This document shows, one piece after another, positions 17,607 through 60,274 of a stretch of DNA of 60,274 nucleotides. Both the position numbers and the translations under genes were made by a program. The notes beneath the pieces were generated by a model. The model was not told the origin of the DNA, did no database searches, and was given only the letters and a program-made list of their open reading frames with translations. Source of the DNA: a virus (taxonomy: Duplodnaviria > Caudoviricetes); IMG/VR virus record IMGVR_UViG_3300027976_000041, positions 1-60,274 of that record; one strand, written 5' to 3'. Numbering within the stretch: position 1 is the stretch's first letter; the number at the start of each line of letters is the position of its first letter.

Positions 17607-17613
17607 AGCTCTT

Positions 17614-31487: not shown

Positions 31488-31682
31488 CTATGCGCCCTGG
31501 TTATAACCAAATGTGGCTTTGGCTTTTGATATGAAGAAATCGGCAGAACGGATGGCGTCCTCAAGCTGAAACGCATTCCATATTTCACGTGACAAAGCTA
31601 GCTTAGCATCAGCAAGATATACAAGCGCTACACCAATAGCTGGTGTTGGTGGCGGATTTGTAATTGGTACTATTGGTCTCAT
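31488..31682 (-). CDS. Hypothetical protein
   Basis: ORF tightly packed between gp33 and gp59. Confidence 0.5.
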   Translation of the reverse strand: MRPIVPITNPPPTPAIGVALVYLADAKLALSREIWNAFQLEDAIRSADFFISKAKATFGYNQGA

Positions 31683-31984
31683 TAGAATCCCTCTAAGGTT
31701 GATCTTGAATCCATTAAACCCGTTTCGATCATTTCCTGCTCAATTTTGCCCTTCAAACTATTGTTGATGTGCTTGGCAATAGCATCGGGTTCGATGTCTT
31801 TTTCGTCACAGTATTTCAAGATGATATCGGTACATGTTTTATCCTGCTTAACCGCTTCACTTTCAATAAAGAGACTAAAATCGGTGGCAGATTTGAATAA
31901 GAAGTTATCGCTGAACTTAATATTAGCTAAAGCCATGACCTCAGCGGTCATAATAACAAATGGAGTTTCATTTTGTGTAGGCAT
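31682..31984 (-). CDS. Late transcription coactivator gp33
   Basis: FS..IE.......DIILKYC....IEP..IAK.I..SLK.KIE.E. Confidence 0.85.
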   Translation of the reverse strand: MPTQNETPFVIMTAEVMALANIKFSDNFLFKSATDFSLFIESEAVKQDKTCTDIILKYCDEKDIEPDAIAKHINNSLKGKIEQEMIETGLMDSRSTLEGF

Positions 31985-32279
31985 GGATAACTTTTTGGAG
32001 ACGAGTAATTTTAGCGTATTCCTCACACTGTATTTTGTGGAATTTATGGTATTTGTCAAATTTTTCTACATCTAATTTTTGTCCAAATTGATCGACGAAT
32101 CGATCACAGTTGTAGATGATTTGCGCTTTATAATCCTCCAGTTCGGCCATAACAGAGACTATGAAAGAAGTATCCTTATTACGGGAGTAGATAATATCTA
32201 ATTCCGTTTGTTTAAAATTGATCATGAGCCATACCTTCTTACGTAAAGCGGGATTATCCCAAAAAGAAACAGTCCGCAA
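31968..32279 (-). CDS. Hypothetical protein
   Basis: ORF in operon orientation; start uncertain. Confidence 0.5.
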   Translation of the reverse strand: MRTVSFWDNPALRKKVWLMINFKQTELDIIYSRNKDTSFIVSVMAELEDYKAQIIYNCDRFVDQFGQKLDVEKFDKYHKFHKIQCEEYAKITRLQKVIHAYTK

Positions 32280-36473: not shown

Positions 36474-36490
36474 AATCGCCTAAAAATTAA

Positions 36491-36526
36491 ATTATAACAC
36501 CACTTCGGTAAAATAGAAATAAACTA
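36491..36526 (-). promoter_or_regulatory. Promoter: extended -10 plus upstream TAGTTTATTTCT box
   Basis: TGTTATAAT; same box and spacing as 39510-39545. Confidence 0.6.
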
Positions 36527-36590
36527 CCGTTCTTCATACATTCCAATCGCGGAAAACCGTTCTTTCAGTTCAACGAGTTCTAAGTCATGA

Positions 36591-37418: not shown

Positions 37419-37464
37419 GTTGTTCCTAAAAATTCTGACAGGGGTTCGTTAACTGACTTTACCT

Positions 37465-38034
37465 TCACTCGCATGAATATGTGTCGAACTGACGTTTCAA
37501 GTCAGTTGGGGCAATCATATCCCAGTTGTTCGTGTGCGACTGTTCTTTGAATATCAAATGGTTTGTTGGCAACACTGCGAGACGATCATTTTTAAGTTTG
37601 ACGAAACTGAACTCTTTGGCTTGCTCTGGGTACAAAGAAAAACTATCACTCACCGGGGCAACTGTAAATAGGTAAGTCCCCGGTATTGTACGTTTATTGC
37701 CGTGCACGTCAATGCGTGCAGCGATTTCCAAATCCGACAAATATTCATATCGAATCGTCGAAAATCTTTCGCCGTAGCAGTTCCAAGCCTGCGCATCTTT
37801 CGGAGTCCACAAAGGTTCAGGAGTTTTTGAGAATGCCAAGGCGTGTACGGGGACATTGCGGTAGACCGCGCCGGATTTGAGCAGCACCGTGCAACCCCAG
37901 ACGCGACCTCGCATCGAAACCAGACCGTACCAAACAGCCTCTATAAATCCAATAGGTTGTGTGTGCGTGAACGTGGTATCGACAAAAATATATTGATGTT
38001 TAGGCAGCTCGCCTACAAGGGTGTAATCTGACAT
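37465..38034 (-). CDS. Hypothetical protein flanked by direct repeats
   Basis: 189-aa ORF; GAVYRNVP.HA and WNCY motifs. Confidence 0.7.
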   Translation of the reverse strand: MSDYTLVGELPKHQYIFVDTTFTHTQPIGFIEAVWYGLVSMRGRVWGCTVLLKSGAVYRNVPVHALAFSKTPEPLWTPKDAQAWNCYGERFSTIRYEYLSDLEIAARIDVHGNKRTIPGTYLFTVAPVSDSFSLYPEQAKEFSFVKLKNDRLAVLPTNHLIFKEQSHTNNWDMIAPTDLKRQFDTYSCE

Positions 38035-38042
38035 TGTTGTTT

Positions 38043-38273
38043 CTAAAAAAATTCTAACAGGGGTTCGTTAACCGCACTGTCGATAGACCATTTTAATTTT
38101 GTCACGGAATGCTTCTTCATAGCCTTCAGGTGTGGTGTACCAAGCAAATCTGCGAACTTTGCCAGATCAGTCTTATTACGAATCCGCACCATAATAAAGC
38201 GACCTTCGCCGCGTGACATTCGTTCAACTTCCGGAGACGGTTTTGTAAAATCTTCGGGTTCGTTATATAGCAT
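38043..38273 (-). CDS. Small protein associated with the glycosyltransferase
   Basis: V.I....DL.KFA.L.G pattern, similar to the neighbouring ORF. Confidence 0.6.
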   Translation of the reverse strand: MLYNEPEDFTKPSPEVERMSRGEGRFIMVRIRNKTDLAKFADLLGTPHLKAMKKHSVTKLKWSIDSAVNEPLLEFF

Positions 38274-38275
38274 AT

Positions 38276-38542
38276 TTAGTCCTCTTCAATCCACACAAAT
38301 AATGCATTTGAACCACGTTCCCCAGGGTCCAGGCGGGGAAACCATATTGACTTGGCGCTTCTGATACCGTTCTCTAGGATACTCTCGATCCCTGTCAGTT
38401 CGCAAAACTTTTTCATATCTGCTTCTGTTTGCATGCAAACTTCTACAACATAGGGCGCCTCAAATGCTTCTTGTTCATATGGGGGAAACCCAAGATAACC
38501 AATACGGTTTATTGTTTTGGCTCCAAAAAATTCTGTCGTCAT
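38276..38542 (-). CDS. Small protein associated with the glycosyltransferase
   Basis: GFPPYEQE...V.......D..KF..L.G....KSIWFP; ATGA-coupled to the GT. Confidence 0.65.
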   Translation of the reverse strand: MTTEFFGAKTINRIGYLGFPPYEQEAFEAPYVVEVCMQTEADMKKFCELTGIESILENGIRSAKSIWFPRLDPGERGSNALFVWIEED

Positions 38543-39477
38543 TCTAACTCCATTCGCACTTCGGTCATTGTTGTATTCGTATAAGATCCACAAATATTCT
38601 TTGGGTTATTCAACTTAACCAACTTAAGTTTAGTATCATATTCATCGGGCCAGGTGCAACCATCTTTCAAGATAAGCCTATTATTCTTTTGAAAATGCGA
38701 ATAATCTACCTGGTGATGGTGTCGCCCCCATTTAGTAGTTAGCTCAACACAATCTGGATGCGCGCGATGCAGAGATGCAGCAAATGAATATCGGTTATCG
38801 AAATCCTTCTTATCACCAATCTTATAGATAGCCTCAGTATTTCCACCCTTCATCTGATTGGTTGCAGCTTTACCAACAGCGAATGAATTCAATAAAATTG
38901 TGCAATAGCCTTTTTTTAAGAGCTGAAGGGATAAATCTGTATCTTCATTGAATGGTGCGGGTTTGTTATCCCATTCAAGAACTCGCCAACGTTCAGAAAT
39001 GGAGTTATCCAAGAGGATACACGAGTAGATTCTCGTGTTATAATAAGCGGGCTCCTTTTTAACGAATGATGGGCAGAAGAAGTGATAGTTCAGACCGCTC
39101 ATTTTTACATTAGTAAAGCGATCCGTATAATCTTCTAATACTCGAAATGGTACAGATGATCTAACACGCAATTTAGTATTTTGGTGGATACGATATAGAT
39201 ATCTAAAGTTATCGTCGCACACCCAATGCCGCTTGTGCCCTTCGGCTATAGAATGTTCCCAGATCCAATTGCGAGCGGGGATGCCACCAAGCCCAAGATT
39301 TTTGAATGGTAGTACCAGAATCTTCTTTGGATTGATGACTGAGGCATATTTGTCGTATTCTTGTTCTTCGATTACGATTCTATAATCCATGTCGTTTTCT
39401 TCGAATGTTTTTGACGTCATTCGAGATTCCCATCTGCCCTTTGAGAGGATGTAGATAGGGTAGCGGGTTTGCTTCAT
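38539..39477 (-). CDS. GT-A fold glycosyltransferase, TET-associated (TAGT)/GREB1-like
   Basis: YPIYI.SKGR, E.QEY..Y, G.IPARNW.W.HS...G..RHW..DDN, TRIYSC.L, NEDTDLSL, MKGGNT, GR.HH.VDY. Confidence 0.8.
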   Translation of the reverse strand: MKQTRYPIYILSKGRWESRMTSKTFEENDMDYRIVIEEQEYDKYASVINPKKILVLPFKNLGLGGIPARNWIWEHSIAEGHKRHWVCDDNFRYLYRIHQNTKLRVRSSVPFRVLEDYTDRFTNVKMSGLNYHFFCPSFVKKEPAYYNTRIYSCILLDNSISERWRVLEWDNKPAPFNEDTDLSLQLLKKGYCTILLNSFAVGKAATNQMKGGNTEAIYKIGDKKDFDNRYSFAASLHRAHPDCVELTTKWGRHHHQVDYSHFQKNNRLILKDGCTWPDEYDTKLKLVKLNNPKNICGSYTNTTMTEVRMELE

Positions 39478-39509: not shown

Positions 39510-39545
39510 ATTATAACTTATCTTTGGGAAACCAGAAATAAACTA
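39510..39545 (-). promoter_or_regulatory. Promoter: TATAAT plus upstream TAGTTTATTTCT box
   Basis: Same box and spacing as 36491-36526. Confidence 0.6.
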
Positions 39546-40337
39546 TACCATAGCCGTGAGTTCTGCCAAACTAATGATTTTGATACCGAGATCACGGGCT
39601 TTCTGAGTTTTTCCTGAGGTTGAATGAATATCCTTACACACAAGAATCGTGATAGCCTTGGAGAAGTTTTCTACGACCTCACCACCCATCGACTGCACTT
39701 TGGCAATCATCTCAGGCGATAATCTAACACCTGTTGCGATAATCACTTCATTTATGAGAGCGCCTTTGCCGAGAACGACTGCTTTCGGTTGAACGAATTT
39801 AACTTTCGATTTGATGCGTTGATATATTGTGTTAGCAGAACTTGCATTGCAATGAAGTAATTCCGCCGATTTTACATCATAGCCTTGGAGCTCACAGTAT
39901 TCCTCAACCGAAACCCGTCCAGATAATACTTCCTCAACCGTGTACTTATCAAATACTACTTTGAGCTTTCGTTCGCCGAGCCCACGGCCAAATAAACCAA
40001 GCGCCGCGAACAAGCGTTGAGGCGTGGTTGATTCAAGAATCTTTTTCATCATGATCCCAGCTTTACGACCGTTTTCGCCGATAACTTCTTCTAGAACTTC
40101 TGGGTTGTTGATAATACCCACCGCGCTAAAGAAACCATGTTCAATCAGTTTTGCGACAGAACCTTCGCCAATCCAATCAATCTCCATCTTCGAGAAGAAA
40201 TATTGAAGCACCTTGGCGCGCTGTTCATCGGCGCCCTCGGCTGAAGTAGATACAAGATCAACACCCGTGGCATTCCATTCTACACCAGCTCTGCCTCCTG
40301 GGAATTGCCCGTAAAACCAATCATCATATGTTTGCAT
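39543..40337 (-). CDS. ligA: NAD-dependent DNA ligase, C-terminal part (HhH and BRCT)
   Basis: WN.TGVD, IGEGSV.KL, FGRGLGERK HhH; BRCT I.ATG.R...GG.V...FSK....LV......SGK..KA..LGI.II. Confidence 0.85.
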   Translation of the reverse strand: MQTYDDWFYGQFPGGRAGVEWNATGVDLVSTSAEGADEQRAKVLQYFFSKMEIDWIGEGSVAKLIEHGFFSAVGIINNPEVLEEVIGENGRKAGIMMKKILESTTPQRLFAALGLFGRGLGERKLKVVFDKYTVEEVLSGRVSVEEYCELQGYDVKSAELLHCNASSANTIYQRIKSKVKFVQPKAVVLGKGALINEVIIATGVRLSPEMIAKVQSMGGEVVENFSKAITILVCKDIHSTSGKTQKARDLGIKIISLAELTAMV

Positions 40338-40458: not shown

Positions 40459-41253
40459 ATGCGCAACAAAAATATTTATCAATTCAACTATGTCTACCGT
40501 ATTACCAACATAGTTACTAGTATGCATTATTACGGTTGTAGAAGCTGTGATATTGATCCAAAACTAGACCTTGGTATCAAATACTTTGGTTCACTTACGG
40601 GTGAAGTCGGTAAAGCCTTTAGAGCCGACCAAAAAGCAAATCCGTCAAAATTCAAGTATAAGATCGTTAGAATATTCACCACACGTGAATCTGCACTAAC
40701 ACTCGAAATAATGCTCCATGCTATGTTTGATGTTGGCCGCAACCAGAAATTCTACAATATAGCAAAACAGACATCAACTTGGTATGATAGAACTGGTGTG
40801 CCAGTTTCTCCAGAAGTTTTAGCAAAAAGGACTATCACGCTCGCAAGAAATAGAGCGGCCCCTGGTTACATACACCCGCTTAGTGGTAAGAAGCGTTCGG
40901 CCATTCATATAGCGAGTAGCATTACCGCTAGGGCGATAATTCGGGCTAAACCAGATTACATAAATCCTCAAAAGGGTAAAAAACACACGAAAGAACATAA
41001 TGCTAGTATTGCAGCCGGTATGGCAAAAGCTAACGCCGTTCCTGGGTATATAGATAAACGTACTGGCACAGTATGGTCAGAGGAAACTAAAATTAAGGCC
41101 GCAAAAATTCGAGCAAGAAGAAGGGCTGAACCGGATTATATCAGGCCCGTATATCGGACGAATGTTTTCGTCCGTAAAATGAAACGCTTTTATTGCAGGG
41201 GGCCTGGTTTACCAAACCCGATAATGGTTGGTATAACATCTCCCGCTCGGTGA
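40459..41253 (+). CDS. GIY-YIG (Seg-like) homing endonuclease inserted antisense in ligA
   Basis: YVYRITN...HYYG.RS...YFGS, A..LE..LH..FDV..N..FYN; about 30-aa basic repeats; AGGAG SD. Confidence 0.85.
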   Translation: MRNKNIYQFNYVYRITNIVTSMHYYGCRSCDIDPKLDLGIKYFGSLTGEVGKAFRADQKANPSKFKYKIVRIFTTRESALTLEIMLHAMFDVGRNQKFYNIAKQTSTWYDRTGVPVSPEVLAKRTITLARNRAAPGYIHPLSGKKRSAIHIASSITARAIIRAKPDYINPQKGKKHTKEHNASIAAGMAKANAVPGYIDKRTGTVWSEETKIKAAKIRARRRAEPDYIRPVYRTNVFVRKMKRFYCRGPGLPNPIMVGITSPAR

Positions 41254-42278
41254 ATCTTAACAATTGAACCCGGTTGAATTTTGTTATCATAAATGAATCG
41301 TGCATTAAAACCAGAGCATCTGGAGATAGTAACCCCGCCAATATACACTGGCTCGATAAGTATGACTGGTTTGTAAAAACTGTCTTTTGACACGGACCAC
41401 TCGATTCCTATCACCTCTGTTTCTACGGAGCTATTCACCAGTTTAATTTTTACTGAGTAATTAGGATTTAAATCATCGGATGTAGCATTGAACTTTCGAT
41501 ATTCAATACTATCAACATCGACTACCACACCATCGAGTTCGTATTCTGAGTGCTCGATCATCTGTGCGATTACCATTTCAACATCTTTATAAGTAAAATG
41601 GCAATTCTGTAAGTATGTAACTGGTGTGGTGAAGTTATAGTGCTGCGATAGTATACGCATCTGTGCACTCTTATCCATTAGATTTTTGTAATTGGCGAAC
41701 ATCTCGAACGCCACGAATTTAAAATATTTGTAAAGTTCGCCTTGACCTTTAGTCGAGTTTAAGAATCCTGCGACGAAGTTACGGGCATTAGCATACTCGC
41801 GGTCGGCTTCGGCCAGAAGCGCGGGCCAATCCTTTTTAGCAATCACCAATTCGCCCCGGATAAAACCTGTAAACTTATCTCCAGTATGGGCGGGAAGGCC
41901 AACCATCTTAGATGTATGACGGATATTGGATGCGCCATAAACTCCATCGCCACGAGACCAGGAATTGATCAGGACGCCGTTTTTGTATTCCAGCAGGCAA
42001 GAATTGCCGTCGATTTTTTCGGTGAACAGATATTCACGAGCCTTTGGAAAGTTGTTTTTCCAAGCCGACCACTCTTTTTCATTGCGAATTTGATTCAAAC
42101 TGCCCATCACCATAGGCAATTTTTCCTTGCCTGTGCGTTCGTTTGAACCAATGTGCTTCAGAATCTCGGGGTTGGTTTTGGATAGAGCAAGTTCGAATGC
42201 GTCGAACTCAGTATCCGTCATGATGGGATCGCCCGCGAAGTAGGATTTCTTCGCGGCGAAATATTTGGAAACAGTCAT
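41190..42278 (-). CDS. ligA: NAD-dependent DNA ligase, N-terminal part (adenylation and OB domains)
   Basis: Y..G.PIMTD.EFD, MGSL, EKIDG, SRGDG, RGEL, ARNFVAG, ELDGVV, RAGDVIP. Confidence 0.92.
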   Translation of the reverse strand: MTVSKYFAAKKSYFAGDPIMTDTEFDAFELALSKTNPEILKHIGSNERTGKEKLPMVMGSLNQIRNEKEWSAWKNNFPKAREYLFTEKIDGNSCLLEYKNGVLINSWSRGDGVYGASNIRHTSKMVGLPAHTGDKFTGFIRGELVIAKKDWPALLAEADREYANARNFVAGFLNSTKGQGELYKYFKFVAFEMFANYKNLMDKSAQMRILSQHYNFTTPVTYLQNCHFTYKDVEMVIAQMIEHSEYELDGVVVDVDSIEYRKFNATSDDLNPNYSVKIKLVNSSVETEVIGIEWSVSKDSFYKPVILIEPVYIGGVTISRCSGFNARFIYDNKIQPGSIVKIHRAGDVIPTIIGFGKPGPLQ

Positions 42279-43202: not shown

Positions 43203-43409
43203 TTAGTTCCTAAAGTTAAGTTTGTAATCAATCATACAATCGACCCACGCGTTTTGGTAGATCAAAAGTTCTTTCCATGTGGGATGGTTCACATCCTCAT
43301 GCATAGTTGTAACTTCTTCTAAGATCGGCATAGACATAAAGAAGTTCATACTTACGTGAGCGATCTCGCCGTCGCCCAAAATTTCACGTATTTCGTCGGT
43401 TGTTCTCAT
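43203..43409 (-). CDS. Hypothetical protein
   Basis: ATGA-coupled to the upstream gene. Confidence 0.55.
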   Translation of the reverse strand: MRTTDEIREILGDGEIAHVSMNFFMSMPILEEVTTMHEDVNHPTWKELLIYQNAWVDCMIDYKLNFRN

Positions 43410-43849
43410 ATTTTAGGTGTAATGTGTCGGTGATTTATTCTACAATTGATGATGCCATTAAAATACTTATCTTGATTTTCCAAAACCTCAGAAAGCATCT
43501 GCTCTTTAGCTTCCCAATACGACATGCCGCCTTTGGTGCTGCAGAAAAACAAAATTTCTCGCGTGAATTTATCTTCGCCGAGTTCCTTAACAAGCTGAAC
43601 AAGCTTCTCGCTACTGCTCCAATATGTCGGCCAATCTGACTGCACTAAAGTTTTTGTTTTCTTTTTATATTTCGCGCCATTTTTTCTCTTCAAAGTTTTC
43701 ACGGACGTCTTCTTAAAAAACAAAAGTTTTTTTCCAAGATATGCCTTGCCATTTTCCAAACAAGTAATTTTGTAAATGAAACCTAAAGCGTTTTCGGGAA
43801 TAAGAGTTTCGTTAAATGGCGCATCATGGTATACCCACTCAGACATCAT
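43406..43849 (-). CDS. Short GIY-YIG-family nuclease
   Basis: GFIYKIT....K.YLGKK, SDW..YWSS, F.REIL, Y.E.K.Q, YFNG.I. Confidence 0.75.
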   Translation of the reverse strand: MMSEWVYHDAPFNETLIPENALGFIYKITCLENGKAYLGKKLLFFKKTSVKTLKRKNGAKYKKKTKTLVQSDWPTYWSSSEKLVQLVKELGEDKFTREILFFCSTKGGMSYWEAKEQMLSEVLENQDKYFNGIINCRINHRHITPKI

Positions 43850-44016: not shown

Positions 44017-44274
44017 CTATTTAACGCACTCTTTTAAACTAAGTAACTCCGTGAAGCCCCCGATATAGATACCATCAACAAAAATAACCGGAACAGCGCG
44101 AGCGGTCGGCGCTAATTTCATAAGGTCTTCTCTAATGATATAAGTTAGTGTGGTATCTTTCTCTTGGTTTATATCTACATGAATTTCTTCAAAAACCAAC
44201 CCCCTCTTTATAAGAAAATTCTTTGCTTGGACACAGTAAGGGCAATTTGGCTTGGAATAAATTATTATCATCAA
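44017..44274 (-). CDS. nrdC: Glutaredoxin
   Basis: IYSKPNCPYC, AVP.IF.DG.YIGGF. Confidence 0.92.
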   Translation of the reverse strand: MMIIIYSKPNCPYCVQAKNFLIKRGLVFEEIHVDINQEKDTTLTYIIREDLMKLAPTARAVPVIFVDGIYIGGFTELLSLKECVK

Positions 44275-50204: not shown

Positions 50205-50405
50205 TTAAGAACCGCCGCTACGTTGATACATATCTAATACATAGCTAATTACTTTCGCCGAATTAAGCCCCCAGGTCTCGCTTGGGCTTTTAAATCTAAG
50301 TGCGCTATTCTGGCTGTGCCACCACATGTTAACTAATTCCTGTGATCCAAGCATGGCCATTAGAAATGGGGCCAATTGCTCTTTAGTTTCTATATTATAG
50401 ATCAT
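50205..50405 (-). CDS. Small protein resembling the Xre/MbcA/ParS C-terminal antitoxin domain
   Basis: LGS.E.V..WW.S.N.AL..KSP pattern. Confidence 0.5.
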   Translation of the reverse strand: MIYNIETKEQLAPFLMAMLGSQELVNMWWHSQNSALRFKSPSETWGLNSAKVISYVLDMYQRSGGS

Positions 50406-51046
50406 TAAAACTCAATCGGGCCAATTCTATCGGCCATATTATATTGTACAACCTGTTCGGGCGCAAGATAAATATCATGATCTGTCACTAGAAACTTACG
50501 AATAATTTTCTCATCTAATCCAGTATGTTTAATATAATGCTGCATTATCATACGATCTAAACGGTCATACTCGCTCTGTAGGCTTTTGAGTTCCGTGTAG
50601 GAGCCCTCGGACACTGTATTGAAGTTATGGGTCAGTGTCATGCACGATGGCGTGATCACTCGGCGGCCCTTCGCGCCAGCCATGAAGATCAATAAACCGG
50701 CGGACTGAATCTGGCCGATACCAACGGTCTTGATTGGAATCTTGGATGCAGTAATGGCTTCAACAATAGCCATGCCGCCACACAAGTCGCCGCCTTCCGA
50801 ATTAATAAGAATCGTGAGTTCTGGCGGGGGATTATCGACAATATTCATCATAACAATCCACTGAACCATATCTGCCGCGGATTCGGTCGTTATCTCGGAG
50901 AATAATAAAAACGGCCCAAGTTTCTCTTGGAATTCGATTCTAGTTAAATCGAAATTCTCTTGTTTAATTGGGGTCTTTTTTGATACGGGCTTTTTGATTG
51001 GAGACCTTTTGATTGGAGACTTTTTGATTGGTGATTTTTTCGTCAT
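50405..51046 (-). CDS. clpP: ClpP protease subunit with N-terminal KKSPI repeats
   Basis: LINSEGG, G...SAG (Ser), RR...P....H (His), D.YL..E.V.Y..AD (Asp); GGAGAGG SD. Confidence 0.88.
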   Translation of the reverse strand: MTKKSPIKKSPIKRSPIKKPVSKKTPIKQENFDLTRIEFQEKLGPFLLFSEITTESAADMVQWIVMMNIVDNPPPELTILINSEGGDLCGGMAIVEAITASKIPIKTVGIGQIQSAGLLIFMAGAKGRRVITPSCMTLTHNFNTVSEGSYTELKSLQSEYDRLDRMIMQHYIKHTGLDEKIIRKFLVTDHDIYLAPEQVVQYNMADRIGPIEF

Positions 51047-51548
51047 TGACTGCCTCTCCAGTATAGAATATATGATTTCCGATCTGCATATGGTATTTAT
51101 ATCCGAATCGTTCATAAAACGATTTTACTGTAGTATTGTGAAAAAACAGAGATCCGACCGTATTATCTTTGATAGATTTAGATATCACCAAATTATAGGC
51201 TATCTCTTTAATTTTAGAGGATATTTTAGTGGCAATGGCTGTCGATTCCAACATATTAATAGTCCAAGAAAATTGATACGGTTGATAAACCACACCACAG
51301 ATACTATTTGGAAATCTAATATTTTTGACACGATTCATTGTGACGTGGCCCACGGCGATAATACCCATTTGAGACTCGCCGCGAGCCTCGTAATGGAGAT
51401 TGAGTTCCATACACCGGAGTTCTGTTTTTAGCTTTTTGTTTATTAGAACAAATTCTGGCTTCAGAATCATGTGACCAACGACTGCGTTGTGATAAAAAAA
51501 GCCGATTATAATATTTATGAATAGAATAGATTTAATTAATTTTTGCAT
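50964..51548 (-). CDS. SleB-like cell wall hydrolase (Hydrolase_2)
   Basis: CM..N.HYEARGES..G..AV..VTMNRV...FP.SICGVVYQ..QFSW, IGNHIFY; hydrophobic N-terminus. Confidence 0.88.
   Translation of the reverse strand: MQKLIKSILFINIIIGFFYHNAVVGHMILKPEFVLINKKLKTELRCMELNLHYEARGESQMGIIAVGHVTMNRVKNIRFPNSICGVVYQPYQFSWTINMLESTAIATKISSKIKEIAYNLVISKSIKDNTVGSLFFHNTTVKSFYERFGYKYHMQIGNHIFYTGEAVNDEKITNQKVSNQKVSNQKARIKKDPN
50966..51040 (-). repeat. Five 15-bp tandem repeats read in two frames
   Basis: AAAAAGTCTCCAATC-like units: KKSPI in ClpP, NQKVS in the hydrolase. Confidence 0.85.
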
Positions 51549-51815: not shown

Positions 51816-51845
51816 ATTATAACACAAACAAGAATAAAAGTAAAA
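51816..51845 (-). promoter_or_regulatory. Early promoter
   Basis: 29 of 30 nt identical to 34587-34616. Confidence 0.85.
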
Positions 51846-51885
51846 ATAAAAACGCGGCCTAAGATAGCTCCTTATCATCTAGGCC
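51846..51885 (-). terminator. Probable terminator of the prkA-spoVR operon
   Basis: GGCCTAGAT...ATCTTAGGCC followed by gcgtttttattttt. Confidence 0.55.
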
Positions 51886-52046: not shown

Positions 52047-53549
52047 TTATTCCTCAAAATCTTCGGTAGAAACCGTATCTGATTCCACACCATCTATAAA
52101 TGTAGAAAGTTCTACTTTAAATCCCCAAAGATTTTGAACGTGTTGCAATACGGCTAATGTATCCTTTTCGTGTAATTCAGAACCATCCTGGGAAATATAA
52201 TGGAGTTCTAAACGCCGGGTTGAATTTAGATTGGCAGAATATACTTGAATATTAGGAGTAATTTTAGATCGATCATATCTATTAGCTAGAGTAGCTCTAA
52301 TCTCTTTATAACCCTTTTCGTCATGAATTTGTTCAACGACATACGCACGATCATTTAAATCGGCGATCTGAAACATTCTAAATTCCCGCATAACCTTAGG
52401 CCCGAGGAACTGTCGTATACCCGATTCGTCGTTGTAGTTTGCAACAATATCTCGAATTACTCCAAAGTGATTGCCTTTGCCCGCAATGGCGGGAAACCAT
52501 TGGCGATCTTCTTCATCTGGTTTAGTACAGATTCGTTCTATATCACGCAGAATTGCCAGACCGAGTGCATAGGGATTAAAATTTGGGCCAACCTGCTCAA
52601 AGGTACCTTGACGCACAACAGCGGACTGTACATCTGCGATCTCAAGCATAGAGCCTTCAGAGATTAATCCCTTTTCATACAGCCGACCCAAAATATACAT
52701 GTGCGTATATGTGGCCATACCTTCATTAAGAACCTTTGTTTTCGACTGCCCATTAAAGTATGTTGCTATGGTGCGAACGATTCTAATTATCTCGCGTTTC
52801 CATGGGGCTAGTGATGGGGAGTGCTTTTCGATAAATTTTAGAATATTTTCTTCTGTATCGATAGGGAATTTCTTGTGTTCAGTTTCTATAACCTTTGGAG
52901 GTTCTGGTAATGTACTATCCATTACAATATCAACCTGTGATAAAAGATATTCTTCTCGAGCTAGACGATGAGCTGTATCTTCGGCTAGATTAAATACTTT
53001 CTTTTTTGTTTTATCAACCCCCTGTTGCTCTAGAGCGTGAGCTGAATCCAATATAGATTCCACTTCGCCTAGGCCATATTTTTCTTCGCAATTAGAGATA
53101 AATTTCTTAGCGAATGTAAGATAATCTATTATAGAATCCGCCATACCCAATTCTTTAAATAGATAGTTATGTTTAAAGAAATGATTGTGGCCGAATGCGG
53201 CGTGCGCTATAACTAGTGCTTGTATAGTTGCAGAGTTGCCCTCCATAATAAAATTGATACATGGGTTTGTGTTAATTACAATCTCATATGCCAGTCCGCT
53301 ATGGCCCTTCCTATAGTTATATTCATCTCTAGCAAATGATTTTCCAAAGCTCCAATGATTATATCCCGTGGTAAGGCCGACTCGACTATACGCATCTAGC
53401 ATCTGTTCGCTTGTAGTGATATAGAATGTGTTTGGATATATATCTAATCCCATTTCACTGATGGCGATTTTTTCACACTCAACTGCTATTTTAGAAATAG
53501 TATCGGCATTCCACTCGTTATCGACAAAAAGTAATTTAGATTTTTTCAT
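52047..53549 (-). CDS. spoVR: SpoVR/YcgB family protein
   Basis: HWSFGK, GLAYEIVIN.NPCI, AHAAFGHNHFFK, TKV.NEG.ATY.H, NPYALG. Confidence 0.95.
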   Translation of the reverse strand: MKKSKLLFVDNEWNADTISKIAVECEKIAISEMGLDIYPNTFYITTSEQMLDAYSRVGLTTGYNHWSFGKSFARDEYNYRKGHSGLAYEIVINTNPCINFIMEGNSATIQALVIAHAAFGHNHFFKHNYLFKELGMADSIIDYLTFAKKFISNCEEKYGLGEVESILDSAHALEQQGVDKTKKKVFNLAEDTAHRLAREEYLLSQVDIVMDSTLPEPPKVIETEHKKFPIDTEENILKFIEKHSPSLAPWKREIIRIVRTIATYFNGQSKTKVLNEGMATYTHMYILGRLYEKGLISEGSMLEIADVQSAVVRQGTFEQVGPNFNPYALGLAILRDIERICTKPDEEDRQWFPAIAGKGNHFGVIRDIVANYNDESGIRQFLGPKVMREFRMFQIADLNDRAYVVEQIHDEKGYKEIRATLANRYDRSKITPNIQVYSANLNSTRRLELHYISQDGSELHEKDTLAVLQHVQNLWGFKVELSTFIDGVESDTVSTEDFEE

Positions 53550-54823
53550 GGTGTATCTCTAGAAAAAATTTCCCGAAACACGGCATAAATTCCTGATGGG
53601 AATATCAATTTTTTCAAGACGATATTTTCGTGCGCAGTTCGCAATTTTTCATATAAGCCCCACAAACTTGTTTTTCTGATATCGGACATATTAAATGAAC
53701 TAACATGTTCTGAAGTTAATTCGGTATAGATAAAATACTGTAGTTTTGGCAATAAATCTTCTAAATATTTTTGTACGGCTGGATTATCACTTTCGAAATT
53801 ATCGCCGTCACTAGAAGAAGCACAATAAATATTCCATTCTTCTATGGGATATCTAGCCTTGATGATTTCTGTTACTAGTTTGAATGCTGTTGATACTATA
53901 GTGCCACCCGATTCTTTGCCGTAAAAGAATTCATCTTCATCGCACTCTTTCGCCTCAGTCGTGTGTCTGATAAAAACCACGTCTATATTTTTATATTTAG
54001 AAGATAAGAACATATGCAGAAGCATATAGAATCTTTTAGCGAGATCCTTTTCATATTCTCCGACAGAGCCAGATACATCCATCACACAAAACATCACCGC
54101 CTGGTTCATGGGTTTAGTTTGTATTTCAAACTTTTTATATTTTAGATCAATTGGATCAAGAAAAGTTATAGCATTGGCTTTTCGTTTTAATCGGGCGATT
54201 TCTTCAATAATAGAATCACGCTCTTCATCATCTAGTTCTTCAAATAATAGAATCTTTTCAAGCTCTAAGATTTTTCGAAGCTTTGGAAATTTCAGCGCGA
54301 TACGTCGCCCCAATGAATTTATCATTGACTGTTCTAAATCTAGTAGAGACGGGTTTCCAGAGGAAGAATATCCAGCTCGATTTCGTACAGTAGAGTTTAC
54401 TTGCTTTGATGATTTTTTGATAAAGTCCGGTAGTTCAAGCCCATCAAATAATATTTCGGCGTATTCTTCTTTGGATAAAACGAATTCGAATTCGTCTTCG
54501 CCGGAACCAGAATCAGATGCATCATTACCTTTGCCTTTATTCTTTTCGGGCTTTTTAATGAGATCATCGACAACGAATTCTTCATTTCCCGGAAGAACAT
54601 ACTTGCCTTTAACAGTATTCGGATCATGACGAAAATGCGGCTCTGAAATCCCATCGATCGGGATTTTAACTTTCTGTTGACCAGTATTAGTAATAGAACG
54701 CTCTGATACTGTATCCCGGATAGCTTTCTTAATCGATTCTCGTGCTCTTCTAATAAATCGGCCCCGATTGCCCAGTGACTTACCGCCCGGATTAGTTCTT
54801 CTATCAACAATAGTATGTGACAT
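53546..54823 (-). CDS. yeaH: YeaH/YhbH (DUF444) VWA-like protein
   Basis: DRR.N..GKS..NR.RF, PGN.EF, AVMFC.MDVSGS, FIRH, ESGGT, SDGDN. Confidence 0.95.
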   Translation of the reverse strand: MSHTIVDRRTNPGGKSLGNRGRFIRRARESIKKAIRDTVSERSITNTGQQKVKIPIDGISEPHFRHDPNTVKGKYVLPGNEEFVVDDLIKKPEKNKGKGNDASDSGSGEDEFEFVLSKEEYAEILFDGLELPDFIKKSSKQVNSTVRNRAGYSSSGNPSLLDLEQSMINSLGRRIALKFPKLRKILELEKILLFEELDDEERDSIIEEIARLKRKANAITFLDPIDLKYKKFEIQTKPMNQAVMFCVMDVSGSVGEYEKDLAKRFYMLLHMFLSSKYKNIDVVFIRHTTEAKECDEDEFFYGKESGGTIVSTAFKLVTEIIKARYPIEEWNIYCASSSDGDNFESDNPAVQKYLEDLLPKLQYFIYTELTSEHVSSFNMSDIRKTSLWGLYEKLRTAHENIVLKKLIFPSGIYAVFREIFSRDTP

Positions 54824-54824
54824 A

Positions 54825-55157
54825 TTAAACTGAGAAGGATGATCCACAGCTACATGTAGATGTAGCGCCGGGATTATTCGTGACGACAAATTGTGCGCCA
54901 GCCAGATTGTCATTATAATCTATAATAGATCCAACCAGATACTGATAGCTCATTGCGTCGATCAAGAGGGTTACACCGTTCGTGACCGTGGTCATATCGT
55001 CTTCCTCGATATCTTCGGCGAACGCGAATCCGTAGGAAAAGCCAGAACAGCCTCCACCCTGTACAAAAACGCGTAGCATAAGACCGGGCTTGCCGTCTTC
55101 GGCGAGTAACTCTGCAACCTTTACGGCCGCTGATTCGGTAAAAATTATTTCTGTCAT
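54825..55157 (-). CDS. erpA: A-type Fe-S carrier ErpA
   Basis: [47 protein letters not shown]. Confidence 0.92.
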
Positions 55158-55483
55158 ACTTTTTTGATGTGAAAACTTTCGCCGCAACCACACATTGTAT
55201 CGACGTTAGGATTGTCAAATTTGAACATCTGCTTGAGCCCTTCGGTGACGAAATCTATACGACTACCATCAAGATATTGTAGATTTATCTTATCGATCAA
55301 TACCGTGGCACCATATGCCTCAAATATATTATCTGTATCTGTTACATTGCCTGCTATTTCGAATGTGTGTGCCAAACCAGTACACCCAACCTTCTTGATA
55401 CCGATTCGCAATCCAATACCTGGCTGTTTCTCAAGTTGGTGGCGAATCTGTTTCGCGCAATTTTCAGTTAGTATGATTGCCAT
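55154..55483 (-). CDS. iscA: A-type Fe-S carrier IscA
   Basis: MAI.LTE, GLRIG.K..GCTG, FKF.NPN....CGCGESF. Confidence 0.92.
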
Positions 55484-56042
55484 GGGAAAGCCTTATTATA
55501 TTTATAATGTCAACAAGTTCTGGGCTCTGGAGTACTTCAGTGTGCCCATAGTTCAGAATTATTTCATTTGACTGTTTATATAGTTCTCGTTGACTTTCGA
55601 TGGTAATAACCCCATCGTTTTTTCCAAACCATAAGACATCAAAACCGTGGGTAGTAACAATATTAGTCCATGGGCATGCCGGAGGCATATGTCGCGGGCG
55701 ACTTGTCCACATTCCAGTTCTACTCAACATTATTAACCAGTGTGGTATCCGATTGAATGATGACCAGAAGCTAACGTATTTACTACCGCCCCAAGGTGTT
55801 CCAATAGAGATTCCGTGAGTTACAAGCTCTGGATTCCGTTTAGCCAAATGCCAGGCATAAAGACCGCCCATGCTGTGTCCAACAACGATGCACGGTTCGG
55901 TGATGTGCTTCTCCATCGCGATGAGATTATCTTCCGGCGATAATGTCATTTCCCAAGATAAACGAGTATTTGACATATGCGCACCGACCCAATTCCAGGA
56001 TATATTTGATGCATGTGCGCCATGAATCAATAGGATTTTCAT
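55464..56042 (-). CDS. Alpha/beta hydrolase
   Basis: LIHGA, VGHSMGG, GTPWGGS, NDGV, H.EVL. Confidence 0.88.
   Translation of the reverse strand: MKILLIHGAHASNISWNWVGAHMSNTRLSWEMTLSPEDNLIAMEKHITEPCIVVGHSMGGLYAWHLAKRNPELVTHGISIGTPWGGSKYVSFWSSFNRIPHWLIMLSRTGMWTSRPRHMPPACPWTNIVTTHGFDVLWFGKNDGVITIESQRELYKQSNEIILNYGHTEVLQSPELVDIINIIRLSHGNHTN
55499..55506 (-). promoter_or_regulatory. Late promoter TATAAATA upstream of iscA (inside the hydrolase 3' end)
   Basis: Exact consensus 15 nt upstream of the ATG. Confidence 0.65.
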
Positions 56043-56046
56043 AATA

Positions 56047-57984
56047 CTAACTCTTGGCGATACGAAGATACCATTCAACTAAACGCCGGACGGTTTTTTC
56101 AGTGTAACCTTTTTCAATCATCCGTTTCAGGAATTCAGCATGTTTCTCGCCATCGGCTTTTGAGGCTTTTGCGCTAAAAGATATAACCGGTAACATTTCG
56201 TCAGTCGCGCTGAACATCTTTTTCTCGATCACTTCGCGTAGCTTCTCATAGGAAGTCCATGCGGGATTCTTACCCTTATTCTGAGCACGGGATCGCATTA
56301 CAAAGTTTACGACCTCGGCTCTAAAATCTTTAGGATTAGAAATCTGGGCGGCCTTCTCTATTTTCTCAAGTTCCTTATTCAGGACTGCTCGATCAAACAT
56401 CTGGCCCGTGTCGGCATCTTTAAATTCGATATCCTGAACCCAGTGATCAGCGTAATCGATATATCGGTCAAACATATGCTGACCGAAGTCGGAGTACGAA
56501 TCTAAGTATGCTTTCTGAATTTCATGGCCGATATATTCTTTATACTTCTCGGTCATGTGTATCTTAACAATCTCCAGTAAAGAGGTTGCCTGATCTTCTG
56601 GAAATTGCTCCTGTTTAATTGCGCGTTCTAATACATACATTAAATGCACGGGATCACACGAAACTTCAGTGGGATCAAAATTGTATGTTTGTGACAGGAT
56701 TTTGAAGGCGAATCGAGTAGAGATGCCACGCATGCCCTCATCGACTCCAGCATTCTCTTTGTACTCTTGGAGAGTTTTGGCCTTAGGGTCTTTGTCCCGT
56801 AAATTCTCACCGTTATATACAGCCATCTTCGAAACCTTGGAAGAATTTTCGTGCTCCTTCAGACGGGACAATACAGAGAAGTCTGCTAGAAGTTCCATAG
56901 TCATCGGTGCGCATGGGGCAGTTTTCAGGGATGATTCGCCTATCATCTTCTTGTATACTTTAACCTCTTCTGTGGTCCGGAGGCAATATGGAACTTTAAC
57001 AATATAGATACGATCCAAGAAGGCTTCGTTATTCCGGTTTGAACGGAATGTGATCCATTCAGCCTCATTCGAGTGAGCCAAAATAATTCCGTTAAATGGA
57101 ATCGCGCCGAGCCCTTCTTCAGTTCCGTTATAGTTACCTTCTTGTGTAGCAGTTAAAAGCGGGTGAAGAACTTTGATCGGTGCTTTGAACATCTCGACGA
57201 ACTCAAGGATACCCTGATTCGACAAACACAAACCTCCGGAATAGGAATATGCATCTGTGTCGGATTGAGAAAATTCCTCAAGCATCCTGATGTTAACTTT
57301 TCCGCAGAGAGCAGAAATATCTTGATTATTATCATCACCAGGTTCAGTTTTGGAAATTGCTACTTGATTCAGCTTTGAAGGCCACATCTTCATAACAGAG
57401 AATTTAGAAAGATCGCCGTCACATTCCTTGAGACGTTTCAGAACCCATGGTGATGGAATCTGATTTAGATAACGTGTCGGAATATTATATTCGGCTTCAA
57501 TATGTTCCTTCAGAGCTGGGTCAGTGAATAGACCGAGGGGAGATTCGAAAACTGGGGAAACTTGGTTACCGAACTTCAGTACGTAGATCGGTTGTTTTTC
57601 CATCATGTTTTTTAGACATTCCGCAATGGAAGATTTTGCTGAACCCACTGGTCCAAGTAGATACAATACCTGTTTACGTTCTTCAAGCCCTTGTGCAGAG
57701 TGTCGGAAGTAACCAACGATTCGTTCAATTGTATCTTCCATACCGTAGAGATCCGCGAAGGGTTTATAACGGCTGATGGTTCGATTTTGAAAAATACGTG
57801 ATAGTGTATGATCCGTAGATGTATTAATTACCTCAGGTTCACCGAACGACTTTAACATTCGCTCGGCTGGAGAGGCATAAGTGTCTGGAGAGGTTTTACA
57901 TAGGTCCAAATATTCTTCAAGTGAAAATTCTTCACTGTTCTTTGATTTTGCAACGTCGGAATACAGAGAAAACAGTTTATTCAT
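56047..57984 (-). CDS. prkA: PrkA/YeaG AAA+ serine-kinase family protein
   Basis: LLGPVGSAKSS Walker A, EPGDDNNQDIS, GILEFVEMFKAP, AHSNE.EW, NEAFLDRI, PKDFR.EVV. Confidence 0.96.
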   Translation of the reverse strand: MNKLFSLYSDVAKSKNSEEFSLEEYLDLCKTSPDTYASPAERMLKSFGEPEVINTSTDHTLSRIFQNRTISRYKPFADLYGMEDTIERIVGYFRHSAQGLEERKQVLYLLGPVGSAKSSIAECLKNMMEKQPIYVLKFGNQVSPVFESPLGLFTDPALKEHIEAEYNIPTRYLNQIPSPWVLKRLKECDGDLSKFSVMKMWPSKLNQVAISKTEPGDDNNQDISALCGKVNIRMLEEFSQSDTDAYSYSGGLCLSNQGILEFVEMFKAPIKVLHPLLTATQEGNYNGTEEGLGAIPFNGIILAHSNEAEWITFRSNRNNEAFLDRIYIVKVPYCLRTTEEVKVYKKMIGESSLKTAPCAPMTMELLADFSVLSRLKEHENSSKVSKMAVYNGENLRDKDPKAKTLQEYKENAGVDEGMRGISTRFAFKILSQTYNFDPTEVSCDPVHLMYVLERAIKQEQFPEDQATSLLEIVKIHMTEKYKEYIGHEIQKAYLDSYSDFGQHMFDRYIDYADHWVQDIEFKDADTGQMFDRAVLNKELEKIEKAAQISNPKDFRAEVVNFVMRSRAQNKGKNPAWTSYEKLREVIEKKMFSATDEMLPVISFSAKASKADGEKHAEFLKRMIEKGYTEKTVRRLVEWYLRIAKS

Positions 57985-58025
57985 TTTGTTTCTTTCAGCT
58001 AAGTTAATTCATAACAACTATCATT

Positions 58026-58033
58026 TATTTATA
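58026..58033 (-). promoter_or_regulatory. Late promoter TATAAATA upstream of prkA
   Basis: Exact consensus 41 nt upstream of the ATG. Confidence 0.75.
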
Positions 58034-58118
58034 AAATAATCTTAACCAATAATTTTCTGGCACCATTTCATTTGAAGTATGTGATAAATATATTTATCCT
58101 AGTTTATCTTAGATCATT

Positions 58119-58325
58119 TCATATTCCTGATAGAGTCTCCTTGAGTTCCACCGCCTCCGGGTTACAAGAAGGCCAAGTGCAGGAGTGGCTCTGGGAGGTG
58201 TCGAGGGAAGCCCGCAGCGCATCCATCGCCCCATCAATTTCAGCAGGTAGGCAAGGCCCGCCGATACTTGTCTCGTTCAGTTGCTCAAGCCGCAGGAGAG
58301 CTAGCTTTAATACTTCGATGTTCAT
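58119..58325 (-). CDS. Hypothetical mosaic mini-gene
   Basis: AAGGAG SD; CTWP.CNPEA segment shared with the next gene. Confidence 0.55.
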   Translation of the reverse strand: MNIEVLKLALLRLEQLNETSIGGPCLPAEIDGAMDALRASLDTSQSHSCTWPSCNPEAVELKETLSGI

Positions 58326-58783
58326 GGTGTCTCCTTAGTTTGCTGCGCTATGGCAGCGTTTAGCACGATATAGAGATTCCGCATTTCTGTAGGTAGCCCC
58401 CTAGAAGCAACCTCGTCATTCCCATAGTCACACGGGTGCACATCTACATTGTTAAGTGCGAGTCTAACTACTGACTGTGCTGCTGCCCTCAACCCTTCGA
58501 TCTCCTTGGCTTGTGCAGGTGGTGAGGTGTAGAGCGGTCGGTCATCCTCACAAGTCTTGTGCCCCCAGATGCTTCCACCAATGGCTTGCCATGCAACAGG
58601 CTCCTGCTCCCCCGCCTCCGGGTTACAAGCAGGCCAAGTGCAGGGGTATGTGTCGATGGAAGCATCAGCCTTCAACTCCTCGATCTCCTTGGCTTGGCGT
58701 TCTAGTTCTTCAACAGCATCTTTGACGTCACCGTACTCTTCGTATAACGCACCTGCTCGGAGGTGTTCAATTAGTGTGCTAAT
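58322..58783 (-). pseudogene. Hypothetical gene whose start appears mutated (ATG to ATT), or which uses an ATT start
   Basis: Frame is open to AAGGAGACGAA-ATT; EQEPVAW...PLYT.PP motif. Confidence 0.55.
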
Positions 58784-60109: not shown

Positions 60110-60274
60110 TTCGTCTCCTTCATAGCCGCGTCAATCTCAGCGCAAACTTCGCGCAGTCGGTTTTCTTGAGCATCCCACGCAACAGTCCCCGCAACAGTCC
60201 CCGCAACAGTCCCCGCAACAGTCCCCGCAACAGTCCCCGCAGCAGCCCCCGCAGCAGCCCACGCCGCAGCCCCC
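60106..60274 (-). CDS. 3' end of an Ala-rich repeat protein (AAAW/AGTV...DAQ..RL)
   Basis: Manual translation ...AAAWAAAGAAAGTVAGTV...AWDAQENRLREVCAEIDAAMKETK. Confidence 0.65.
   Translation of the reverse strand, partial: GAAAWAAAGAAAGTVAGTVAGTVAGTVAGTVAWDAQENRLREVCAEIDAAMKETK
60179..60274. repeat. 12-bp coding tandem repeat (gcaacagtcccc x5, then gcagcagccccc variants)
   Basis: Directly visible. Confidence 0.92.

Follow-up and report, generated by a model that had tools for sequence, protein, structure and literature searches.

A PrkA-YeaH-SpoVR triad interrupted by a hydrolase gene and two iron–sulphur carrier genes in a T4-like phage from freshwater

Gene organization of the six-gene block

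We analysed a DNA stretch of 60,274 bases, hereafter the window, which is the whole of IMG/VR virus record IMGVR_UViG_3300027976_000041 (estimated 28% complete). The window was assigned to an uncultured freshwater T4-like myovirus, of which it is a fragment, because it encodes T4-like baseplate, gp5, gp32, gp59, gp33, ribonucleotide reductase (RNR), and primase genes. Six co-oriented genes on the minus strand, namely prkA, an alpha/beta hydrolase gene, an IscA-type carrier gene, erpA, yeaH, and spoVR, occupied positions 57984-52047 (Table 1). The original prediction for this locus, made from the sequence alone, described a tightly packed block with intact motifs. It proposed that the phage had combined the PrkA-YeaH-SpoVR triad and the two iron–sulphur (Fe–S) carriers into one machine under late control. 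The packing and the motifs were borne out by the open reading frames (ORFs), the family matches, and the alignments.

The hydrolase gene started after a gap of 4 nt from prkA and overlapped the IscA-type gene by 20 nt. The IscA-type gene and erpA shared an ATGA overlap, erpA and yeaH were 1 nt apart, and yeaH passed directly into spoVR through a second ATGA overlap at 53549-53546. Reading of the DNA revised three of the longest-ORF starts, which gave ATG codons at 56042 for the hydrolase, 55157 for ErpA, and 54823 for yeaH. The interval of 1,223 nt from prkA to yeaH held three genes, and the insertion of this cassette left both flanking genes untruncated. Tight packing was the norm across the whole window and is thus not peculiar to the operon. 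The GC content at third codon positions (GC3) of the six genes was 0.30-0.47, compared with 0.33-0.48 in the eight core genes measured, with yeaH and spoVR just below that range. Since their GC3 was near the core-gene range, the six genes appear to be ameliorated, and neither GC nor GC3 made the cassette stand out as a recent import.

Table 1. Positions of the six genes and of the associated transcription features in the window
Feature	Position	Strand	Description
prkA/yeaG homologue	56047..57984	-	645 aa; AAA+ domain and PrkA C-terminal domain; phrog_22605
Lid-less alpha/beta serine hydrolase	55464..56042	-	192 aa; Ser57-Asp143-His167 triad; substrate not assigned
A-type Fe–S carrier, IscA/SufA-like (type II)	55154..55483	-	109 aa; C34, C99, C101; PF01521; phrog_17776
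ErpA, type I A-type carrier	54825..55157	-	110 aa; PF01521; three Cys
yeaH/DUF444 homologue	53546..54823	-	425 aa; VWA-like; metal-ion-dependent adhesion site (MIDAS)-type D-x-S-x-S, T, and D residues
spoVR/ycgB homologue	52047..53549	-	500 aa; SpoVR and SpoVR_C domains
TATAAATA, T4-type late-promoter-like motif	58026..58033	-	Wholly non-coding; lies in the 134-nt spacer 57985-58118, 41 nt before the prkA ATG
Second TATAAATA	55499..55506	-	Wholly within the hydrolase gene, at its 3' end; the IscA-type ATG follows 15 nt on
Candidate operon end	51842..51885	-	Imperfect GC-rich hairpin and U-run, ~160 nt after the spoVR stop
Sigma-70-like match	51816..51844	-	TTTACT-17-TATAAT with TG, before the next gene's ATG at 51810; consensus match only
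gp33-type late-transcription co-activator	31682..32059	-	PF16805, E 1.7e-13

Conserved residues of PrkA, YeaH, and SpoVR

The products of the three triad genes were readily recognized by family models. PrkA matched PF08298 (1.9e-157, 524 bits) and PF06798 (1.3e-64, 219 bits), and its score against the equivalog model NF011999 was 1107 bits, well over the cut-off of 576. YeaH matched PF04285 (2.1e-142, 476 bits) and reached 508 bits with NF003707 (cut-off 396). SpoVR matched PF04293 (6.6e-138, 460 bits) and PF24755 (65 bits), and remained under the cut-off of the equivalog NF008737 (618.6 against 679 bits), as a divergent member of the family.

The three proteins were aligned with 119-142 viral and bacterial homologues. 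The alignments and translations indicated that the PrkA Walker A motif, the MIDAS-like set of YeaH, the SpoVR motifs, and the three Cys of each carrier are all present, as originally described. Walker A of PrkA reads GPVGSAKS, whereas the consensus GPVGGGKS was found in 136 of 142 homologues. The same S-A variant, at G115-G116, occurred in four others of the 142, all of them viral (loci L019, L020, L026, and L040). K117, S118, and the EFVEMFK block of PrkA are invariant and were retained in the window. So were D249, S251, S253, G306-G307-T308, and D339-G340 of YeaH, invariant among 128 homologues, and H116, G120-H121 (H-x3-G-H), and N275-E276-G277 of SpoVR, invariant among its homologues. Of the columns conserved at 97% or more, PrkA kept 205 of 218, YeaH 50 of 53, and SpoVR 85 of 92.

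Characterization of the inserted hydrolase and Fe–S carriers

Family matches of the hydrolase were weak and generic (PF12146/PF00561, E ~1e-7). Its nucleophile elbow, G-H-S-M-G-G, was present, in line with an alpha/beta hydrolase fold. Homologues formed a tight family of 45 clusters at E <= 0.001, being 32-100% identical to the query and 105-336 aa long (mostly ~185 aa). H56-S57, D143, and H167 were invariant in the 28 sequences formed by the query and 27 aligned homologues (31-67% identical). The AlphaFold2 model, with a predicted local distance difference test score of 88, lacked the lid of its structural matches, which have 240-290 residues. A fold search with Foldseek retrieved generic esterases, lipases, and thioesterases with template modelling scores of 0.55-0.69 and a probability of 1.00 to many esterases, and picked out no specific substrate class. 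The modelled fold is thus esterase- or thioesterase-like. The name BioH (pimeloyl-ACP methyl ester esterase), which some sources give to the homologues, was rejected since the protein scored 19.7 bits against 206.95 for TIGR01738.

The IscA-type carrier scored 103.3 bits with the general model TIGR00049 (cut-off 58.8) and stayed below the cut-offs of both IscA equivalogs, TIGR02011 (113.4 against 150.6) and NF007049 (106.8 against 181). ErpA scored 159.8 bits with NF010147 (cut-off 117), and its Cys residues lie in GGGCSG and in a C-terminal C-S-C-G. Of the two names first given to these genes, erpA could therefore be kept, and iscA had to be widened to the general A-type subfamily (IscA/SufA-like). 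Because the two carriers were 34% identical to each other, they are of distinct types and do not stem from a recent duplication. Type II carriers take clusters from scaffolds, and ErpA passes clusters to targets. IscU was not found in the window.

Relatives of the cassette genes were then located in other viruses. When viral contigs were scanned with the hydrolase sequence by itself, nothing was found, and an alignment-based scan gave 69 loci. Hydrolase relatives were present in 67 of these 69, the triad was within 8 kb in none, and an ErpA-like gene lay 4-7 kb from the hydrolase gene in 17, including 10 of the 12 closest. The hydrolase neighbours in L090 and L097 were genes for a dCMP deaminase, an exoribonuclease, a PTPS/QueD-type enzyme, and Cpn10. 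In five hydrolase-bearing records, PF08298 gave only sub-threshold AAA matches; these records are 21-31% complete and so provide no evidence of absence. A pair of ErpA-like and IscA-like genes was also found in six of seven other viral loci without the triad. In L088, the only locus of that set fully annotated, IscU was encoded between the two. The pairs of L083-L088 were near NrdB and were bounded by RNR/glutaredoxin/PAAR genes and a cell-wall hydrolase gene, with an Fe/Mn superoxide dismutase gene also nearby in L084. These T4-like contigs are remote relatives of the window, with 25-28% identity in NrdA and NrdB.

Examination of the join in metagenome assemblies

Three freshwater metagenome runs contained 94-99% of the studied stretch, and their Logan contigs aligned on it with no differences listed. 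None of these contigs passed 58180. Those of all three runs also broke at 55226-55238, inside the IscA-type gene, which counts against the block as a single operon. The read depth of the two halves, however, covaried over the three runs (9.2/9.8, 22-26/19.8, and 5-6/6.3). Furthermore, the exact full-length IscA-type protein of 109 aa, which spans the break, was found on six contigs from two sources (JGI and ENA), and a contig of 51,006 bp carried both the window hydrolase and the cell-wall hydrolase of 50964-51548. Depth at the break itself was 5- to 10-fold up, where short iscA-like pieces of other organisms match at 90% identity or more.

At 55200-55260, the DNA for the conserved C-terminal motif of the IscA-type carrier shared 90% identity or more, along 50-60 nt, with numerous iscA-like contigs of the same metagenomes that are more abundant and richer in GC. 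Because this motif DNA is common to abundant contigs, it would account for the break in the Logan graph; we infer that a short exact repeat, seen as the 13-nt overlap, breaks the k=31 graph. The arrangement was accepted as real, with the bridging resting on the non-Logan assemblies.

A separate irregularity was observed beyond prkA. At 58119-58700, two small paralogous ORFs (68 and 117 aa) lie in tandem, and both contain a 40-nt stretch (58147-58186 and 58608-58647, 93% identical) encoding C-T-W-P-S/A-C-N-P-E-A, which belongs to a direct duplication of ~460 nt. In the bin 58006-58200, depth was 65-1955 in four metagenome runs, compared with 6-20 in neighbouring phage DNA in the three runs covering it; GC rises to 0.54 here, and loose ends occur on both sides. 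The pattern at 58119-58700 is a sign either of a seam in the assembly or of a short conserved element that is very widespread.

Distribution of the triad and the carriers in viruses and bacteria

As viral loci, we examined the best 80 of 225 IMG/VR contig stretches encoding PrkA relatives (59-71% identical), and as bacterial loci 80 of at least 600 matches. Flanks were 8-10 kb, most viral records were fragments, and uniqueness is meant among the loci compared. The complete order prkA-yeaH-spoVR was found in 69 of the 80 viral loci; the other 11 showed prkA or prkA-yeaH only, mostly where the DNA ended near the last gene. The gap between prkA and yeaH was at most 150 nt in 67 of the 75 viral loci with both genes and in 70 of 78 bacterial loci, which agrees with the earlier statement that the two genes are normally adjacent. 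The gap between yeaH and spoVR was equally short in 64 of 69 viral loci. Larger spacers within triads held other ORFs, which were HNH-like in L003, L018, and L027, GIY-YIG-like in L073 (both labels read off translations, with no family scan), and an ORF of 380 aa in L014. The phage context of the triads was clear where gp59 and gp32 followed them (L028 and L029), RNR preceded them (L002), or a primase gene was near (L024).

In contrast to the other ORFs in these spacers, a carrier or window-type hydrolase was found inside the triad in none of the 80 viral loci. Only one viral locus (L080) had a carrier within 8 kb, an ErpA-like gene ~7 kb away on the opposite strand, and neither a carrier nor the hydrolase was found within 10 kb of the triad in the 80 bacterial loci. 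In a FastTree tree of 143 PrkA sequences, the window grouped with L019 (support 0.93) and L040 (0.999), both viral. Because the triads of these nearest PrkA relatives are uninterrupted, the insert is derived. Among 18 large PrkA-bearing viral records, an A-type carrier was encoded in five, at 10.6 to ~121 kb from prkA. When only PrkA-bearing phage records at least 90% complete were counted, three of five encoded an A-type carrier somewhere. The records of L020 (98% complete) and L026 (97%) contained the triad and neither carrier nor hydrolase.

The original prediction had called for a search of related phages for triads co-located with carriers. This linkage turned out not to be conserved, and the carriers were unlinked from the triad in related phages, an outcome that the prediction itself had named as refuting. 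Its central proposal, a single AAA+/VWA/Fe–S delivery machine built by the phage, likewise gained no comparative support, given the absence from the viral and bacterial loci and the uninterrupted triads of the nearest relatives. As judged from these comparisons, the two modules are independent of each other, each being recurrent in phages on its own, and their splicing was probably a one-off, lineage-specific gene shuffle with no conserved machine.

Late-promoter-like motifs and predicted transcription

The motif TATAAATA, which we take to be the T4 late promoter, occurred 11 times in the window, compared with 6.55 +/- 2.57 expected; 7 of 100 shuffles reached 11, and the count was thus not significant. 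In contrast, its placement was far from random. Nine of the 11 sites lay 5-100 nt upstream of a same-strand start, compared with 5.8% of positions (binomial ~4e-10), when the start of the ClpP-like gene was set at 51046, and eight of 11 when it was set at 51115. Five sites were wholly non-coding, against 0.42 expected for 3,640 non-coding bases, and four were wholly coding, against 5.9 expected. The motif behind the late promoter originally placed at 58026, before prkA, was found in the right orientation and belongs to a positionally enriched non-coding class. The second one, placed at 55499 before iscA, could not be upheld, as it lies within the hydrolase gene and is indistinguishable from chance; a start there would leave a transcript leader of ~9 nt.

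A scan of the minus strand in the spacer upstream of prkA detected no sigma-70-like site. T4 late promoters are driven by gp33 and gp55. A gp33-type co-activator is encoded in the window (Table 1); a gp55-type sigma was absent from the Pfam matches of the scanned window ORFs, which represent ~28% of the genome. Because the motif class of 58026 is enriched and a gp33 homologue is present, late transcription of prkA with read-through over the whole block may reasonably be inferred. Of 60 non-redundant loci in other viruses, 29 had TAAATA in the 110 nt before prkA, compared with 5.2% of random windows, a difference inflated by AT-rich spacers, and the exact TATAAATA was upstream of prkA in only 4 of 61 non-redundant loci. 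At the downstream end of the block, the sigma-70-like match before the gene starting at 51810 is consistent with a transcription-unit boundary, and the number of such matches in the region was not above that of shuffles.

Proposed function and alternative explanations

We consider it somewhat better than an even chance that the block is a genuine accessory operon of two independent, recurrent cargo modules, in which the triad acts in host protein turnover and the carriers work in parallel. The first module would be the complete PrkA(YeaG)-YeaH-SpoVR(YcgB) triad, long phage-resident and ancestrally contiguous. The second would be a three-gene cassette of lid-less serine hydrolase, IscA-type carrier, and ErpA, inserted precisely between prkA and yeaH. 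Transcription would most likely start from the TATAAATA 41 nt before prkA, be carried out by the phage late machinery, and extend through all six genes. Judging from the bacterial homologues, the triad may switch on or boost ATP-dependent bulk turnover of host cytoplasmic proteins late in infection, and this turnover would free the amino acids and energy that virion synthesis needs when the host is poor in nutrients. The carriers may form a scaffold-to-target Fe–S relay that supplies Fe–S enzymes of the infected cell or the phage, in parallel to the triad and not as its subunits.

A proteolytic role is suggested for the triad because of reports on E. coli YeaG, PrkA in vitro, and cofitness. 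In Escherichia coli, starvation induces a largely nonspecific breakdown of cytoplasmic proteins that supplies amino acids and ATP, and this breakdown requires YeaG (PMC13684143, 2026). PrkA of Bacillus subtilis showed ATP-dependent protease activity in vitro, and its kinase activity was not confirmed (PMC9512850). In addition, yeaG, yeaH, and ycgB showed cofitness in six bacteria (10.1101/072470). As for the second module, Nishimura et al. (2017, PMC5332604) described Fe–S-related auxiliary genes in T4-like environmental viral genomes, among them those for A-type carriers, IscU, glutaredoxin, and ClpP.

Several observations weigh against the reading as two parallel modules. Starvation bulk proteolysis has been demonstrated for E. 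coli YeaG only, the accessible part of that report giving no roles for YeaH and YcgB (PMC13684143), and whether PrkA is a protease, a kinase, or a regulator is debated. In each triad alignment, no sequence diverged further at the conserved columns than that of the window (PrkA, 21 of 253; YeaH, 4 of 66, tied; SpoVR, 10 of 118); PrkA held this position among 143 sequences. This divergence, together with the rare G-to-A change in Walker A, possibly reflects an altered function of the triad. Carriers and triad are tightly coupled in translation, as would fit a functional link in this one lineage. As for transcription, no RNA runs containing the stretch were present among the sequencing runs listed, and read-through from same-strand upstream genes is possible. 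The hairpin after spoVR is a weak candidate for the operon end, being missed by the terminator scan and folding no better than shuffles (z 0.09).

A functional link could take two forms, both of which we regard as quite improbable. In one, PrkA, YeaH, and SpoVR would physically work with the carriers in the manner of RavA-ViaA, remodelling or maturing Fe–S complexes or delivering clusters late in infection. RavA-ViaA is linked to Fe–S biology. The co-oriented block of six genes with overlapping or nearly abutting stops and starts would fit such a machine, as would the intact MIDAS-like metal site of YeaH and the occurrence of a carrier somewhere in five of the 18 large PrkA-bearing records and in three of the five at least 90% complete. 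However, tight packing is general in the window, and none of the 80 viral loci had a carrier inside the triad, one had it within 8 kb, and no bacterial locus of 80 had it within 10 kb. Where triad and carrier occur together they are 10-120 kb apart, the triads of L019 and L040 are uninterrupted, and L020 and L026 have neither carrier nor hydrolase. In the other form, for which our expectation is just as low, the triad, as widely carried by large phages, would set off a starvation-type self-digestion of the host proteome late in infection and turn host protein into material for virions, while in this lineage an IscA-to-ErpA relay and the esterase, encoded on the same transcript, would recapture the Fe–S clusters and iron freed from degraded host proteins for energy and nucleotide enzymes until lysis. 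An unlikely explanation, though one with more weight than these, is that the triad is a regulator and no proteolysis engine. The phage copy would be a kinase/ATPase signalling module that either holds the host in its starvation/dormancy programme or blocks that programme, for example by competing with host YeaG-YeaH-YcgB, and so keeps a starving cell productive; the cassette would be unrelated cargo. The triad was proposed as a conserved signalling pathway with species-specific phenotypes (10.1101/072470), and loss of YeaG shortened the regrowth lag (PMC13684143). The unusual divergence of the window proteins at conserved columns would fit neofunctionalisation. By contrast, data on B. subtilis PrkA confirmed ATP-dependent proteolysis and not kinase activity (PMC9512850), all invariant motif residues were retained in the window, and late timing, if real, leaves little time for reprogramming.

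It is very improbable that the late carriers put Fe–S clusters or iron into structural proteins of the virion with the triad as a chaperone, even though the block has a late-promoter motif and a reference title in PMC8163748 mentions Fe–S clusters in phage tail-tip proteins. The Pfam scan found no Fe–S-binding structural protein among the window ORFs that it covered, the triad occurs in phages without carriers, and carriers elsewhere lie among nucleotide-metabolism, IscU, and superoxide dismutase genes and not among structural genes. We give the least credence to an assembly artefact, a chimera at 55226-55238 formed through a carrier motif common to abundant bacteria. The Logan contigs of the three main runs, which end at 55238 and resume at 55226, and the increased depth at this point are what such a chimera would produce. 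On the other hand, the depths of the halves covary, the exact join-spanning protein comes from two sources, the 51-kb contig extends from the hydrolase to the cell-wall hydrolase, and a chance chimera would hardly have prkA and yeaH-spoVR on its opposite sides.

Phage record and genomic setting

The T4-type baseplate genes of the window encode a gp5-like hub/lysozyme, gp6, gp8, gp25, and gp53, and a tail tube protein is also encoded. Other T4-type genes are those for gp32, gp59, the gp33-type co-activator, RNR subunits, glutaredoxin (44017-44274), and primase, and several homing endonucleases and a ClpP-like protein (50405-51115) were identified as well. The structural proteins showed only 30-44% identity to those of cultured phages, the best being a Synechococcus phage and Methylophilales phages. 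A DNA-level search of the region against GenBank phages gave no match.

The ClpP-like gene, 1-1.6 kb downstream of spoVR, encodes an N-terminal KKSPIKK-type repeat. A ClpP gene was also observed 2-3.4 kb downstream of spoVR in L019 and L040, the closest PrkA relatives, and directly abutting an A-type carrier gene in two other PrkA-bearing phage records (L007 and L010). Overall, 23 of 42 PrkA-bearing viral records had a ClpP-family gene; the distances computed put it 2-30 kb from the triad. We do not claim a ClpP-triad linkage, since many of the ClpP-family matches may be prohead proteases.

Three endonuclease genes are located among core genes (16764-17639, 23780-24229, and 43406-43849); they are I-TevI-like (NUMOD3) between gp6 and gp25, TnsA-like, and SegE-like GIY-YIG. 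A relative of the I-TevI-like gene (42% identical) is present between the ErpA and hydrolase genes of L090. Homing-type endonuclease elements could have been movers of the hydrolase/carrier cassette.

Further features were observed at a distance from the block. An NAD-dependent DNA ligase seems to be split into an ORF with the adenylation and OB domains (41190-42278, minus strand) and a BRCT-bearing ORF (39543-40337, minus strand). Between them lies a plus-strand ORF of no known family (40459-41253), which has its own TATAAATA 91 nt upstream. At 35619-39477, a TET-associated glycosyltransferase (TAGT) gene was found beside UDP-glucose dehydrogenase-like and NAD-dependent epimerase genes. This neighbourhood hints at sugar hypermodification of the phage DNA, and no TET/JBP enzyme was seen in the window fragment. 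The contig end at 60151-60270 consists of a 12-nt tandem repeat in ~ten copies, translated in an open frame as a G-T-V-A repeat; it is probably the reason why the assembly stops there.

Significance and comparison with known systems

The comparisons suggest that an intact bacterial starvation triad is common in T4-like and jumbo phages, often with a late-promoter-like motif upstream. The claim of a combined machine loses weight, and the Fe–S insert is probably a lineage-specific shuffle. The YeaG finding makes a hypothesis testable, namely that phages trigger self-digestion of the host and so feed virion synthesis in nutrient-poor waters. The window variant, in which the carriers would be co-transcribed with the triad, offers a test case for coupling between proteolysis and cofactor salvage. 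No study of the function of the phage triad was found in our literature search.

RavA-ViaA, which is linked to Fe–S and respiratory complexes, resembles the present system in kind, because it also consists of an AAA+ ATPase gene followed by that of a VWA/MIDAS-type partner. The families differ, MoxR and ViaA in one and PrkA AAA and DUF444 in the other, and our sequence and linkage tests found nothing that ties PrkA-YeaH to Fe–S biology. The bacterial yeaG-yeaH-ycgB (prkA-yhbH-spoVR) system is much closer. The window proteins match its family models over their whole length, the invariant motif residues are retained, the order prkA, yeaH, spoVR is the same, and the overlap of yeaH and spoVR is operon-like. 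Whereas prkA and yeaH are within 150 nt in 70 of 78 bacterial loci, they are separated by 1.2 kb and three foreign genes in the window. The bacterial triad is under RpoS/NtrC control (PMC13684143), in contrast to the T4-type late motif of the phage window.

The window also resembles the Fe–S auxiliary gene sets of T4-like environmental viral genomes (PMC5332604) in having two A-type carriers, glutaredoxin, and a ClpP-like gene. It differs from them in that no IscU was found and the carriers abut (ATGA) inside the triad. The carriers of L083-L088 lie among RNR, PAAR, and cell-wall hydrolase genes, unlike the triad-embedded carriers of the window.

The closest counterparts are other phage triads. 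The same three genes are present in Ralstonia phage RsoM2USA, PHROGs 22605/19072/35217, the huge-phage records LR756502, LR745206, and LR756504, and the 225 IMG/VR stretches, and they are carried by large myovirus-type or jumbo genomes. In RsoM2USA, a cultured jumbo phage, ORF30-29-28 are contiguous, and the window YeaH is 37% identical to ORF29. The accessible part of the RsoM2USA paper lists PrkA and SpoVR separately and contains no comment on the triad (PMC8504454), and spoVR was tallied as a 'sporulation' auxiliary gene in ocean viromes (PMC8940887). Other phage triads are contiguous or interrupted by other ORFs, several of them homing-endonuclease-like in sequence, whereas the hydrolase and two carriers are inside the triad only in the window. 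The window is thus a new architectural variant of a known but functionally unstudied phage cargo.

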